Notes under the pieces: generated by a model
What the model saw: the letters and a program-made list of their open reading frames with translations, nothing else
Databases searched by the model: none
Told to the model about the DNA's origin: nothing
Made by a program: the position numbers and the translations under genes
Shown: positions 4,432 to 29,137 of the stretch, in pieces
Numbering within the stretch: position 1 is the stretch's first letter
Layout of the letters: each line of letters starts with the position of its first letter
DNA from: an uncultured cyanobacterium
Lineage (GTDB): Bacteria > Cyanobacteriota > Cyanobacteriia > CAKZMO01
Assembly (NCBI GenBank): GCA_963719515.1
Contig: CAVRCJ010000010.1
Location: forward strand, 320,001 to 384,000
Direction: 5' to 3'
Length of the DNA: 64,000 nt

Positions 4432-4628
4432 TTATGGGCGAGGCGTTACAAGCAGCGCTTCAGGCTGAAATTGCCTGTCGTCATTCAAGCCTCCAGCATA
4501 AGACATCTTGAGCCGTACCGTGTTGGACGGACACAATGATATACGAATAGTGGAAACAGAAATGGTGCGATGGAATCTGCGCTCCGCTGCGCGATCGCAC
4601 TTTGATGACAATCATGGGTTGCGAATGG
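4432..4628 (-). pseudogene. Degenerate duplicate of the 3' end of the Mov34/M67 gene
   Basis: Translates HYSYIIVSVQHGTAQDVLCWRL/DDDRQFQPEALLVTPRP* (one extra base near 4484), matching HYSYIIVSVHHGVPRDVLCWRLDEDRQFQPEALLITS at 15063-15180. Confidence 0.85.
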
Positions 4629-4659
4629 CGATGAAGCCATGCCTCCGCTACGCGATCGC
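4567..4659. repeat. Two 24-nt insertions into HIP1 sites (SDR5-like small dispersed repeats)
   Basis: GCGAT+ggaatctgcgctccgctgcgcgat+CGC (4567-4598) and GCGAT+gaagccatgcctccgctacgcgat+CGC (4628-4659). Confidence 0.6.
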
Positions 4660-4664
4660 TGCTC

Positions 4665-5086
4665 GTGACATACTCCCGACGCTCATTCTACGAATAGAGC
4701 GCGGGCTTCTTGGCTCGCGCACCACAAATGAATGGGTGCCGCACAAGAAAGTTTCCTGCTTCTCCTGGTCTTGTCTAGCCAAACAGCAAGCTGTATGACC
4801 CCGATTAGATCCCATCCACAGGCAATTTATTTTACGTCCAGGCAATGACCAACCCCAGACAGACTACTTTTTTGAGCTTCCTTTCTTCCAAAAACTGTGT
4901 CGCGTCACCGTTATGTTTTCTATGGGTGATATTTTTCTCGACGAACACTTTGGAGGGGTAGAAAACCTTGCAAACAGTTGATATGTATACATTCTAGCAT
5001 GAATAAGGATTGTTCGCCTTTGGCTCACGAGCCTTTCATCCCGACGCTGATGCTGCGCATACAGCGCGGGACTTCCCGTCTAAGAG
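4665..5086 (-). mobile_element. Non-autonomous IS200/IS605-family mini-element (422 bp), copy A, no tnpA/tnpB
   Basis: Left-end hairpin identical to the tnpB element at 27740, right-end hairpin ending in TCAC; about 5 differences from copy B (12124-12545). Confidence 0.9.
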
Positions 5087-5125: not shown

Positions 5126-5736
5126 ATGGTTCAAGCAAGTGCTCTACTGATGAGCTTTGAAGCGTTTCTGGCATGGAAGCCAGAGACGGGACGGTATGAG
5201 CTGCACGATGGAGTGGTGGTTGAGATGCAGCCGACAGGGGCGCATGAGAGAGTTGTTGGACTGCTGAATCGCAAGCTGAATGTCCTAATCGACCAGGACG
5301 ATTTGCCCTATTTTATTCCCAACACGGCGATGATTCAGCCTCTGGGCTACGAGAGTGGCTACAAGCCGGACGTCCTGATGCTGGATTCTACGGGGCTCGT
5401 AACAGGGAGCCGTTGTGGGAGCGGGAGTCGGTGGTGACGCTGGGGGAGTCGGTGGTGGTGGCGGTTGAGGTGGTTTCGACCAACTGGCCAGACGACTACG
5501 CCCGTAAGTTTGAAGACTATGAGGCGATGGGCGTTGCCAACTACTGGATCGTTGACTATTTGGGACTGGGGGGGCGGCGCTATATTGGCTCGCCGAAGCA
5601 GCCGACGATTACGGTCTGTACGCTGGTGGATGGGGTTTATCAGACGCGGCTGTTTCGTCGGGGGGATGCGGTGGTGTCTCCAAGCTTTCCTCAGTTGAAA
5701 TTGACGGCGGAGCAAGTGTTTGAGGCGGGTGAGTAA
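5126..5736 (+). pseudogene. Uma2 family endonuclease, frameshifted near 5404
   Basis: RYELHDG..H...YKPDV in one frame; VEVVSTNW.DD..K..DY...YWIVD in the next; the break lies at a GGG run. Confidence 0.85.
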
Positions 5737-11988: not shown

Positions 11989-12123
11989 GGGGCCTATAAG
12001 ATAATCGCGTCAACAAAATCTGTATAGTCTCCCTTGGTAAGGGGGACGCCGAAGGCGGGGGTCAAGCAAAACTGCTATCTAGCCAGAATAGTCCAACTTT
12101 TTCTGCAGCCCCTACTTTTTTAA

Positions 12124-12545
12124 CTTTTAGACGGGAAGTCCCGCGCTGTATGCGCAGCATCAGCGTCGGGATGAAAGGCGCGTGAGCCAAAGGCGAACAA
12201 TCCTTATTCATGCTAGAATGTATACATATCAACTGTTTGCAAGGTTTTCCACCCCTCCAAAGTGTTCGTCGAGAAAAATATCACCCATAGAAAACGTAAC
12301 GGTGACGCGACACAGTTTTTGGAAGAAAGGAAGCTCAAAAAAGTAGTCTGTCTGGGGTTGGTCATTGCCTGGACGTAAAATAAATTGCCTGTGGATGGGA
12401 TCTAATCGGGGTCATACAGCTTGCTGTTTGGCTAGACAAGACCAGGAGAAGCAGGAAACTTTCTTGTGCGGTACCCATTCATTTGTGGTGCGCGAGCCAA
12501 GAAGCCCGCGCTCTATTCGTAGAATGAGCGTCGGGAGTATGTCAC
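12124..12545 (+). mobile_element. Non-autonomous IS200/IS605-family mini-element (422 bp), copy B
   Basis: TTTAA|CTTTTAGACGGGAAGTCCCGCGCTG... to ...GAGCGTCGGGAGTATGTCAC; inverted relative to copy A. Confidence 0.9.
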
Positions 12546-12565
12546 GTTTTCTTCTCTTAGCGATC
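12382..12565 (+). ncRNA. Putative TnpB omega-RNA (reRNA) scaffold plus flank-derived guide
   Basis: Shares AAATTGCCTGTGGA...CGGGG...CTAG...AGAAGCAGGAA...GAAGCCCGCGCTC blocks with the 3' end of the tnpB element, with different but pairing stems. 5' boundary uncertain. Confidence 0.6.
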
Positions 12566-13175
12566 GCGCAAACCGCTTCAAAATTTGTAGCACCACCGCC
12601 AAGTCATTGCGGCTATCGATGGCAAACAGATCCGACTGCCCGTAGTACGGCTGCGGCTGAGCTACCAGCTTGAGAAAGCGAAACGTAGACCCATTGCTCA
12701 CAAACCCAAACGTCGGCTGCGAACCATTGGGGCTACCCAGCATATAGGCCAGCGCTTGCGGAATCGCCGTTTCCACAGAATACGCCACCTGCTTCGACTC
12801 AATCACCGTTACCCAAAAGGGTGGAGAAAACGCTAGCAAATCAATTCGCCCCCGAACCACCAATCCCTCATCCTCAGAGGCGATCGCCACCTCTTTTTCA
12901 GCCGCTAGATAGAAGGGCGGTTGGTAGAAGGTGGCTAGCCTTAGCAGCGGCGACAGCACCACCATCTTCACCATCGGCTCCAGCATCGAATACTGCGATA
13001 GGTGGCGATACTCTGCCTTCACCTCAGCGATCGCCTGCTGCTCTGCTACCGTTAATTCGGGTAAGTCCGTTTGCCACTCGGGGAAAAACTGCTCGTCGTC
13101 GCTGCGCGTGAGGCCAAAGCTGTCCTGCAAATCGGGCAGCGTTATCTGACTAGCGGGAATTGCTTGAACCATCAC
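12513..13175 (-). CDS. PD-(D/E)XK restriction-endonuclease-like protein (HsdR N-terminal-like); last codons supplied by the IS right end
   Basis: RGRIDLL...VIESK...QALAYM...GFVSNG..FRFLKL motifs. Confidence 0.75.
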   Translation of the reverse strand: MMVQAIPASQITLPDLQDSFGLTRSDDEQFFPEWQTDLPELTVAEQQAIAEVKAEYRHLSQYSMLEPMVKMVVLSPLLRLATFYQPPFYLAAEKEVAIASEDEGLVVRGRIDLLAFSPPFWVTVIESKQVAYSVETAIPQALAYMLGSPNGSQPTFGFVSNGSTFRFLKLVAQPQPYYGQSDLFAIDSRNDLAVVLQILKRFARSLREENVTYSRRSFYE

Positions 13176-15062: not shown

Positions 15063-15530
15063 TCAAGACGTAATTAGCAGCGCTTCGGGCTGAAACTGCC
15101 TATCCTCATCAAGCCTCCAACACAGCACATCCCGAGGGACGCCATGATGGACGGACACAATGATATATGAATAGTGGGACCAGGCGACCAGGCGATCGCA
15201 CTCTGAGGGCAGCGCCGGGTGGTCGGGGTGGGAATGGATGATGCCGATGATGTCGAGCTCTAAGTCGCGGGCGTCTTTTTGAGCCTTCAGCATATCTCTG
15301 GGATCGATGGTGTAGCGGCTGGTTTTGGTGCGGGCTTCAGCGGCTTGGCGGGCGTCGGTGATGTTTTCTGCGGCGGACCAGACGTTGGGCACGAGGCGTA
15401 CTTCAACAAGTTGACGAATCGCATCGCTTTCACTTCGGCCCAGCAGAATGCCGCAGCCCTCTTCGGGGTAGGCTTGCTCGCCGCAGTGGGCGATCGCCTC
15501 CATATGCTCGGGGGTCAGCCGCAAGACCAT
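15063..15530 (-). CDS. Mov34/MPN/JAB (M67 family) metallopeptidase
   Basis: YPEEGCG and GIIHSHPDHPALPSECD JAMM motif. Confidence 0.92.
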   Translation of the reverse strand: MVLRLTPEHMEAIAHCGEQAYPEEGCGILLGRSESDAIRQLVEVRLVPNVWSAAENITDARQAAEARTKTSRYTIDPRDMLKAQKDARDLELDIIGIIHSHPDHPALPSECDRLVAWSHYSYIIVSVHHGVPRDVLCWRLDEDRQFQPEALLITS

Positions 15531-18619: not shown

Positions 18620-19027
18620 GTGAATACTCCCTATGCGAACCGTCTTGACCTTGAATCCATTAGGGATAGGGCGGTGCAGAACGATGCGCATCGTGCCCAG
18701 CTTAAGCAACTTGATTTGGCTACCCGTCACCGGGTTTTCCTTGAACTGCGGAAAGAGGAACGAGCGGTACTGCCCAAACTTTTTGAAGCGCGGAAAACCA
18801 TGACCTCTCTCCTTCCTCGCAGCAAATGCTGCCTCTACCCTGCGAATAGGCTCTTGAAGCACCTGAGACTGCACGTCCTTCAGGTGAGGAAATATCTTCT
18901 TAGCCGCAGTCAGCGCATTTTGCTGCTTGTAGTAGTGCGCCGCTCCTTAATTGTTCGCCTACGGCTCACGCGCCCTTCATCCCGACGCTGATGCTGCGCA
19001 TACAGCGCGGGACTTCCCGTCTAATAG
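18620..19027 (-). mobile_element. Doubly deleted derivative of the tnpB IS200/IS605 element
   Basis: Intact left end, about 300 bp nearly identical to tnpB 28063-28366, then only GGGAGTATTCAC of the right end. Confidence 0.9.
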
Positions 19028-27739: not shown

Positions 27740-29137
27740 CTGGTAGACGGGAAGTCCCGCGCTGTATGCGCAGCATCAGCGTCGGGATGAGAGGCGCGTG
27801 AGCCGTAGGCGAGCGATTAAGGAGTGTCTCACTACTCCTTAAAAACGCTATAATCGAGGTATGTTGACCTTGAACTACTCCTACAGAATTTATCCGTCTG
27901 TTGAGCAGGAAGCCCGTATGGTCTGTTGGCTTGAGACCTGTCGCGGCGTCTACAACTATGCGCTGCGCGAACGCAAGGACTGGGTAAAGTCGAGAAGCTG
28001 TGCGGCTAATGCCTGCTCGCTTCAGTCGGAGTACGTCATGGCGGCGGACGCGCCATATCCTGACTACTACAAGCAGCAAAATGCGCTGACTGCGGCTAAG
28101 AAGGTATTTCCTCACCTGAAGGACGTGCAGTCTCAGGTGCTTCAAGAGCCTATTCGCAGGGTAGAGGCAGCATTTGCTGCGAGGAAGGAGAGAGGCCACG
28201 GTTTCCCGCGCTTCAAAAAGTTTGGGCAGTACCGCTCGTTCCTCTTTCCGCAGTTCAAGGAAAACCCGGTGACGGGTAGCCAAATCAAGTTGCCTAAGCT
28301 AGGCACGATGCGCATCGTTCTGCACCGCCCTATCCCAGAAGGGTTTGCGGTGAAAACGGTGCGCATCATCAAAAAGCATTCGGGGTGGTACGCTACCGCG
28401 AGTATTCAAGCTGATGTCAATGTTCCTGATGCCATCCCTGCTGGGGACAGCATTGGTATTGATGTCGGGCTTGAGTATTTCCTGTCCACTTCCAACGGTT
28501 TGCAGGTAGAGCGCCCGCGCTTTTTCGGTAAGCTGCAGCGCAAGCTTAAATTGCTGCAACGCAGGCTGAAGAATAAGCAGCGGCGCTCGAATAACCGCGC
28601 CAAGCTCATCGGAAGAATTGGACGGGTGCATGAGCAGATAGCCGCTTGCCGCCTTGACTGGCAGTTCAAGCTGGCCCACAAGCTTTGTGACCAGGCCCAG
28701 ATCATCTTCGTGGAAGACCTTGACTTTCGCATCATGGCGAAAGGGATGCTGGGTAAACACACACTCGATGCTGGCTTGGGGCAGTTCATAAACCAGGTCT
28801 TGCCATGGGTGTGCTTCAAGCGCGGCGTCTATTACGGCAAGGTTGACCCGTATGGCACCTCTCAGGAGTGCCCAGACTGCGGCGCTGTGGTCAAAAAATC
28901 GTTGGGCGATCGCGTTCATCGTTGTGGTGAATGCGGGTCGCTCAAGCCGAGAGATATTGCCGCTGCTCAAGTCATCAACGCCCGTGGAATTTCGGGTATT
29001 CAAATTGCCTGTGGAGTCGAGGTAGCGGGGATGTGGGAAACCATATCTAGCCAACTGGCCCAGAAGCAGGAAGCTCATCGGGTGACCGATGAAGCCCGCG
29101 CTCTATCGCATCAGCGATGAGCGTCGGGAGTATTCAC
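27740..29137 (+). mobile_element. IS200/IS605-family element carrying tnpB only (IS1341-type)
   Basis: Subterminal hairpins CCCGCGCT...AGCGTCGGG at both ends, right end TCAC, TTTAA immediately upstream; no tnpA. Confidence 0.92.
27861..29120 (+). CDS. tnpB: RNA-guided endonuclease TnpB
   Basis: YSYRIYP HTH start, FPRFKK, RuvC GIDVG / FVEDL / PRDIAAA, zinc finger CPDCG..CGECG; TATAAT 6 nt before the ATG suggests a leaderless mRNA. Confidence 0.95.
   Translation: MLTLNYSYRIYPSVEQEARMVCWLETCRGVYNYALRERKDWVKSRSCAANACSLQSEYVMAADAPYPDYYKQQNALTAAKKVFPHLKDVQSQVLQEPIRRVEAAFAARKERGHGFPRFKKFGQYRSFLFPQFKENPVTGSQIKLPKLGTMRIVLHRPIPEGFAVKTVRIIKKHSGWYATASIQADVNVPDAIPAGDSIGIDVGLEYFLSTSNGLQVERPRFFGKLQRKLKLLQRRLKNKQRRSNNRAKLIGRIGRVHEQIAACRLDWQFKLAHKLCDQAQIIFVEDLDFRIMAKGMLGKHTLDAGLGQFINQVLPWVCFKRGVYYGKVDPYGTSQECPDCGAVVKKSLGDRVHRCGECGSLKPRDIAAAQVINARGISGIQIACGVEVAGMWETISSQLAQKQEAHRVTDEARALSHQR

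Follow-up and report, generated by a model that had tools for sequence, protein, structure and literature searches.

Gene-less IS605 elements of cyanobacteria carry a conserved structured RNA domain upstream of a TnpB omegaRNA scaffold

The 422-bp mini-element at 12124-12545 (+) of the window (the whole 64,000-nucleotide stretch of cyanobacterial DNA that we analysed) is a non-autonomous, gene-less and PATE-like element of the IS200/IS605 type, referred to here as family F1. Its 3' part is homologous to the omegaRNAs linked to tnpB genes and appears to keep their conserved structure, including an end pseudoknot. The initial annotation regarded such elements as consisting of a guide RNA only. 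This part of the description did not survive, since a conserved structured domain (domain A, 12243-12333) is present between the promoter and the scaffold. Covariation suggests that domain A is a conserved structured RNA domain of gene-less IS605 elements in several cyanobacterial families. A domain seen in gene-less elements only, and under structural selection, would support, indirectly, the existence of a working RNA.

The mini-element, its ends and its predicted transcript

The window contains two copies of F1, copy B at 12124-12545 (+) and copy A at 4665-5086 (-), both of 422 bp. In copy A, domain A lies at 4877-4967, the scaffold at 4665-4860 and the predicted guide at 4649-4664. The initial annotation had counted about five differences between them, and pairwise alignment gives exactly five, at 12126, 12180, 12250, 12296 and 12472. 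Two of these (12250 and 12472) retain pairing via G-U, the one at 12472 being the pairing-preserving change from C-G to U-G that had already been pointed out. The flanks of copies A and B are unrelated and TTTAA precedes both. Searching the genome (5.28 Mb in 21 contigs) with blastn, we found six copies of F1, four at 99-100% identity (copy B among them) and two at 89%, and no full-length cognate parent. Loci of this genome group with records named as Cyanobacteriota. Such a parent was not found among 61 relatives and 401 genomes of the class either, and the nearest scaffold matches in these genomes are themselves gene-less. As had been claimed, F1 encodes neither TnpA nor TnpB: it shows no similarity to the TnpB of the window (P0001) or to five TnpA proteins of the genome, and no cargo genes were found in the mini sequences. 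We rejected the idea of a coding remnant or small peptide in F1, given the lack of similarity to TnpB or TnpA, and also a short frame beginning within the -10 box, which in alignments is shifted by indels between copies.

Some features of the neighbourhood deserve mention. A 220-aa frame (12513-13175, -) with a weak match to HSDR_N ends within copy B, from which it takes its last 10 codons and its stop. The gene adjoining copy A (5126-5736, +), which encodes an Uma2 putative restriction endonuclease, is broken into two frames. A 75-nt repeat (79% identity) occurs near copy A, at 4485-4559 and again at 15109-15183, with further likenesses in relatives. Elsewhere in the genome, three elements stand in a row on one strand (C11:289940-292664), a broken tnpB element lying between a copy of F2 and one of F1.

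The ends of F1 are those of a mobile element. The target motif TTTAA (TAM) lies outside the element, at 12119-12123 (+) for copy B, and precedes all six copies. Their flanks are otherwise unrelated across the six TTTAA insertions, i.e. insertion took place 3' of a fixed motif and without target duplication. The left end (12136-12170, +) comprises the guide tetranucleotide AAGT and a subterminal hairpin for TnpA (12140-12170), and a second subterminal hairpin occupies the right end (12505-12535), where the helix is 96% paired among 19 sequences. The left-end hairpin is shared with the full tnpB element, as first annotated: positions 5-73 are 96% identical to the left end of the element at 27740-29137. 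The base following AAG complements the last base of the TAM in 113 of the 114 left ends in the genome, and in 40 of 46 in the fetched loci, which fits the choice of targets via base pairing of the left-end guide, as presented in the accessible text of Meers et al. The genome also holds intact candidate TnpA genes, with 14 matches to Y1 TnpA, 13 of them over the cut-off (one joined hit counted), and two 1800-bp elements at tnpA positions carry the same type of end hairpin. One empty allele was found in a relative; it is diverged and its spacing is merely similar. Near-identical copies, valid ends and resident tnpA genes give good support to the early proposal that TnpA is borrowed, and F1 is almost certainly mobilised by TnpA in trans. 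A short palindromic fragment built of two halves of the left-end hairpin was observed at C6:143686-143748.

An intact candidate TnpB gene is also at hand. The full tnpB-only IS605 element at 27740-29137 (+) has the same left end and TAM as F1, and its 419-aa ORF (27861-29120), P0001, matches the Pfam families HTH_OrfB_IS605, OrfB_IS605 and Cas12f1-like_TNB over the cut-off. Reading the translation by eye, we found the D, E and D residues of the RuvC motif. The P0001 family counts six near-full open copies in the genome (91-100% identity), and open TnpB frames 75-78% identical to P0001 occur in the three other genomes with domain A that were checked. The element at 27740-29137 is a candidate nuclease donor for F1.

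The predicted promoter is an extended -10 of tnpB type, TGCTAGAAT, at 12211-12219 (+), and our analysis confirms both these positions and the correspondence with the TATAAT of the full element. The hexamer TAGAAT of the mini lies 6 nt before A12226, the predicted transcription start, and TATAAT lies 6 nt before the start codon of the full element. This distance between -10 and start codon is 6 nt in all six full elements examined, and F1 reads ATA at the place of the start codon. The tnpB genes of the P0001 clade appear to be leaderless, both in the window (27855-27863) and in five other copies. A TAnnnT hexamer is found upstream of the 5' domain in 34 of the 35 minis examined, at a distance of 11-41 nt. 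A strict scan of 12100-12700 for -35 and -10 boxes found no promoter. The transcript of the mini is predicted to start near 12226 and to span some 320 nt plus the guide. The RNA of F1 is, we think, very probably made and folded.

An omegaRNA scaffold preceded by a structured domain

The scaffold (12350-12545, +) is made of a 5' hairpin, a long-range stem, an extended third stem and the right-end hairpin, and it ends with TCAC. The 3' part of the mini had been described as a region of 165 nt keeping the conserved blocks of the tnpB 3' end. The blocks are indeed kept, and the region is longer, about 196 nt counted from the 5' hairpin at 12350; the mini and the tnpB end both have the three stem pairs cited in the initial annotation. 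Applying a structure hand-drawn from F1 to 19 sequences (13 minis and six tnpB-linked), we found 84.6% of pairing and double changes in 22 of the 46 pairs, with the caveat that the counts of covariation given here for the scaffold and the domains come from related sequences and are not independent events. None of 500 shuffles scored as high and slid controls reached 35-41%. The covariation with tnpB 3' ends that was expected from the start is thus observed. Bases -5 to -3 (12541-12543) pair with an upstream GAY (12394-12396, +) in 96.5% of the cells of these 19 sequences, forming a putative end pseudoknot that is the counterpart of the one in ISDra2. Folding of single sequences does no better than shuffles (z of -0.31 for 12226-12545, -0.71 for 12340-12545 and -0.01 for 12220-12350), so the structural case rests on covariation.

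Where does this scaffold come from? In the multiple alignment, it is 84% identical to the scaffold of the gene-less family F2, and 74-77% to four tnpB-linked ends of other families, with 55% for the end of the local tnpB element (74% over the aligned columns of a pairwise alignment); it aligns with ten tnpB-linked ends at 55-77%. Being nearer to F2 and to the ends of other families, this scaffold shows that F1 did not arise by deletion of the tnpB element nearby, and the view that the minis form a separate lineage stands. In fact, the window includes a true simple deletion of the local tnpB element, in single copy (18620-19027, -), which looks quite different: it retains the left end, 304 nt of the ORF and the last 12 nt, without right-end hairpin, omegaRNA scaffold or 5' domain. 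Judged by eye, the extended third stem is present in 14 of 18 mini scaffolds (17 with a 5' domain and one without) and in none of ten tnpB-linked ones. This extension and the 55% identity mean that binding by P0001 is not assured. The predicted guide of copy B, placed in the 3' flank by analogy with TnpB biology, is 12546-12561 (+). None of the six F1 guides has a second site with TAM plus guide in the genome, which is as expected from the retention model in the available text of Meers et al. On balance, we consider it likely that the F1 RNA guides TnpB.

Domain A (12243-12333, +) sits where the tnpB reading frame would begin. It opens with a short stem (12243-12245 with 12251-12253), whose loop (12246-12250) pairs with 12329-12333 in a pseudoknot spanning a long hairpin (12256-12323), itself interrupted by an A-rich bulge and capped by a loop of 15 nt. 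Double changes affect 8 of 21 pairs among 17 sequences, in which the invariant core was partly fixed by the search pattern, and 8 of 27 pairs among 17 of the 28 members found later with a covariance model, these 17 having been chosen as one alignable subfamily. In this subfamily the pseudoknot helix is 91% paired, with double changes in two of its six pairs; on a mixed alignment it is 60% paired, which is not above all slid controls. When 24 of the later members were compared with shuffles, nine beat nearly all of them, six were middling and nine did not. Unpaired residues are also conserved among the 28 model-found members, with AAAUA in the bulge of all 28, and GAAA and UAA in the loop kept in 23-27 of 28 at each position.

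The pattern scan retained 15 cyanobacterial loci out of 79 genome matches and 9 out of 16 metagenome matches. On inspection by eye the discarded ones (64 and 7, respectively) appeared to result from chance or from coding sequence, and three of them, when scored with the covariance model R1, gave a best E of 0.064. The covariance model matched 4 of the 151 genomes searched in one family and 15 of the 61 in another; in the source genome, R1 matches at the six F1 copies only. A right end follows domain A at 225-274 nt in 31 of 34 distinct loci, of which two others are cut by a contig end and one lacks it. Among the 28 later model matches, 17 have a right end, seven do not (three being near a contig end) and four could not be parsed. 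None of the 15 genome and nine metagenome pattern loci has a tnpB match within 1.5 kb, and near the 28 later loci there is one piece of tnpB, on the opposite strand. Domain A with a tnpB on the same strand was thus never seen among the loci examined, implying that the structure is kept inside gene-less elements. In one genome (G260) domain A is even better kept than the scaffold (89% vs 72%). Viral contigs yielded one match to the pattern, due to chance. No Rfam family matched the elements over its gathering score and no ribozyme was found at E up to 10 (5, 13 and 6 loci). Finally, we found no notable complementarity of domain A elsewhere in the genome or to the tnpB mRNA, with 26 of 30 shuffles pairing better, and an antisense action on this mRNA was set aside as unsupported.

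Other 5' domains and the possible roles of the RNA

Gene-less elements with a 5' domain are not restricted to F1. A census of the end type gave 53 copies of F4 (392 bp), 17 of F2 (450 bp; 18 by blastn), six of F1 and two of F3. The most abundant family, F4 (e.g. C10:3313-3704, -; 53 sites), carries domain E and has ends in common with a 1483-bp tnpB family. F2 and F3 carry domain B (e.g. C10:526044-526492, +; C4:102372, -; C1:7546, -). F2 has an F1-like scaffold but follows TTAG. The ends and the TTAG motif of F2 and F4 are shared with two other tnpB-bearing families, and the left end and TTTAA of F1 are common to the tnpB family of the window. Domain B was found in 7 of 401 genomes with an exact pattern, and not at all in viral contigs; domain E was found in 9 of 301 genomes. 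Double changes in domain B (eight sequences) affect 9 of 21 pairs, among them two of three in the short stem and two of three in the pseudoknot. By eye, the loop of domain E and its partner strand change together between genomes. A resemblance to the hatchet ribozyme was considered for domain B and dropped, as the Hatchet model has no match in the genome.

Domains A, B and E look as if they occupy one frame, in which a stem of 3-4 bp has a loop that pairs 3' of a long hairpin, an A-rich linker leading to the pairing strand. Hardly any base of the outer frame is fixed, and the inner parts bear no relation to one another; R1 scores domain E at E 4.1 and does not match domain B, thus revealing no sequence homology between types. 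A descriptor of the frame, written from the same sequences with 12 shuffles each and to be taken as descriptive, found it in 34 of 35 elements, in a few of them in a different register, and failed on one (L045). The scaffold of F1 (type A) is closer to that of F2 (type B) than to those of other type A minis (84% vs 67-72%), one type A subfamily has a visibly different scaffold, and the G260 mini has a left end and TAM matching the resident tnpB element. These observations suggest that left ends, 5' domains and scaffolds may have been exchanged between lineages by recombination. The scaffold tree, with 5 of 25 branches well supported, is too weak to order the events.

There is further diversity. 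A 413-bp gene-less family, of which four copies were found (right end at C3 471847, +), has another 5' RNA region, in which no frame could be seen by eye. A single gene-less element with a right end at C6 326870 (+) has a structured-looking region with GGGTTCG motifs (by eye), and adjoins a short divergent frame, possibly a gene for a small DNA-binding protein. Two more types of 5' domain occur on gene-less IS605 elements, one fitting the pseudoknot frame (L020:1380-1470 and L054, genome G018) and one that did not fit the descriptor (L045:1400-1480, genome G142, and L048).

How might such an element work? We propose that F1, as a non-autonomous IS200/IS605 element, depends for its movement on a Y1 TnpA encoded elsewhere in the genome, and that in F1 the leaderless tnpB transcription unit has become a gene for a non-coding RNA of some 320 nt, the guide not counted. 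The 3' 196 nt would be an omegaRNA that loads, in trans, a P0001-clade TnpB resident in the genome. TnpB would then cut the empty alleles left by excision, and repair from a filled copy of the chromosome would retain the element. The 5' 90-110 nt, at the start of the would-be ORF, would fold as a pseudoknot-closed domain that may protect the RNA, or keep it folded, until TnpB binds and trims it. An untranslated RNA would have no ribosomes to cover it, and a compact 5' pseudoknot could substitute for them. This PATE-derived, free-standing guide-RNA gene is in our opinion the best explanation, and we give it, taken as a whole, an even chance of being right. That the 5' domain is a protective or loading module is a working model to which we lean a little less than that.

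The same structures can be read otherwise. The RNA could be real and have another role, e.g. as a decoy soaking up TnpB, or through the binding of a host factor by the 5' domain. The 79 copies of gene-less minis with 5' domains do outnumber the tnpB elements sharing their ends; domain A, through its purine-rich bulge, helix of 5 bp and large loop, resembles the platform that a double T-loop forms in T-box stem I, as described in the accessible parts of the sources (PMC11404447, PMC4810234); and each inner domain retains its primary sequence over distant families. Yet, the T-box model finds no match at F1 and the positions of the first T-loop bulge vary, nothing notable in the genome or the tnpB mRNA is complementary to domain A, and the conservation of the guide-side pseudoknot and of a matching TAM fits real guiding, making these roles unlikely in our view. 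A self-cleaving ribozyme of an undescribed class, trimming the transcript to leave a stable 5' end on the guide RNA, would account for a compact pseudoknotted fold at the 5' end and for the strong conservation of unpaired residues (AAAUA, GAAA, UAA). But no Rfam family was found even at E up to 10, Hatchet included, and a frame with almost no fixed bases around unrelated inner parts would require several distinct ribozymes, which renders this possibility very improbable.

The RNA might even be irrelevant, if the structures have their role in the single-stranded DNA intermediate, or were passively inherited as relics from the 5' leader of an unsampled parent. The top strand is also the one on which TnpA acts, G-T pairing is possible in DNA as well, and our searches sample genomes rather than all elements. 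However, the domain follows a -10-like hexamer at 11-41 nt in nearly all minis (34/35), compensatory changes occur between mini lineages, the full elements have a start codon 6 nt behind the -10, hence no leader, and no parent with the domain was found. We regard both the DNA-level and the relic versions as quite improbable, and retain the free-standing guide-RNA gene as the preferred reading. A bolder proposal is that the minis carry interchangeable pseudoknot-capped modules, placed before TnpB scaffolds, widespread in cyanobacteria and having an activity of their own, be it that of a ribozyme, of a nuclease-blocking fold or of a receptor for a host factor or tRNA. This is speculative and we would not bet on it. 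If true, a free guide RNA would capture TnpB in trans and outbreed the elements coding for the nuclease, and if the 5' domain were catalytic it would define a new class of ribozyme. Should its role instead be to stabilise free guide RNAs or to load them, the module could become a portable part for TnpB tools. This genome, in which genes for TnpB and TnpA are resident and three mini families with different 5' modules are abundant, is a clean test set for such questions.

Comparison with known systems

Resemblances to other structured RNAs provide leads and also limits. Like T-box stem I, domain A has a purine-rich bulge, a short helix and a large apical loop (PMC4810234, PMC11404447, in their accessible parts). 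In domain A, unlike T-boxes, we saw no specifier loop or antiterminator, and the bulge bases vary. We rejected its identification as a T-box riboswitch, since RF00230 has no match at F1 and a single one, of E 0.94, elsewhere in the genome. IStrons also carry a second structured RNA on the omegaRNA transcript, which in the available text (bioRxiv 10.1101/2023.11.20.567912) is a group I intron on IS605/IS607 elements. In contrast to this partial description, F1 has no group I match in Rfam, has a -10 of its own and a domain of about 100 nt. The ends of F1 (TTTAA and CAC) also lack the U and G splice-site bases of IStrons, and with neither a group I match nor fitting end bases we discarded an IStron identity.

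The closest parallels are with TnpB itself. TnpB trims the 5' side of its RNA, which is normally its own mRNA (PMC10278001 and PMC10097598, in the text available). The omegaRNA of the ISDra2 TnpB shares with F1 the right-end hairpin, the guide in the 3' flank and the pairing of bases -5 to -3 with a 5' segment (PMC10097598, accessible text). According to the same text, the 5' extension in ISDra2 is tnpB coding sequence, dispensable for cleavage, whereas that of F1 is non-coding and, on the evidence of covariation, under structural selection.

That elements may carry an omegaRNA only and rely on TnpA and TnpB supplied in trans has been published before. According to the accessible text of Meers et al. 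(bioRxiv 10.1101/2023.03.14.532601), PATEs of Geobacillus often encode omegaRNAs and need the TnpB of other elements in trans. Like F1, they are gene-less and retain both ends, and they are mobilised in trans, as F1 almost certainly is. In that text no extra 5' RNA domain is described for PATEs, whereas the conserved domain of F1 stands in place of the ORF, beginning where the start codon would be; and the F1-type minis, unlike the PATEs presented there, appear to mix domain and scaffold between lineages. We found no description of the 5' domain in the literature searched, subscription papers and preprint supplements being outside its scope. Hence, what we consider new, besides a domain A that belongs to no Rfam family, is the range of this domain and the pseudoknot frame that it shares with domains B and E.
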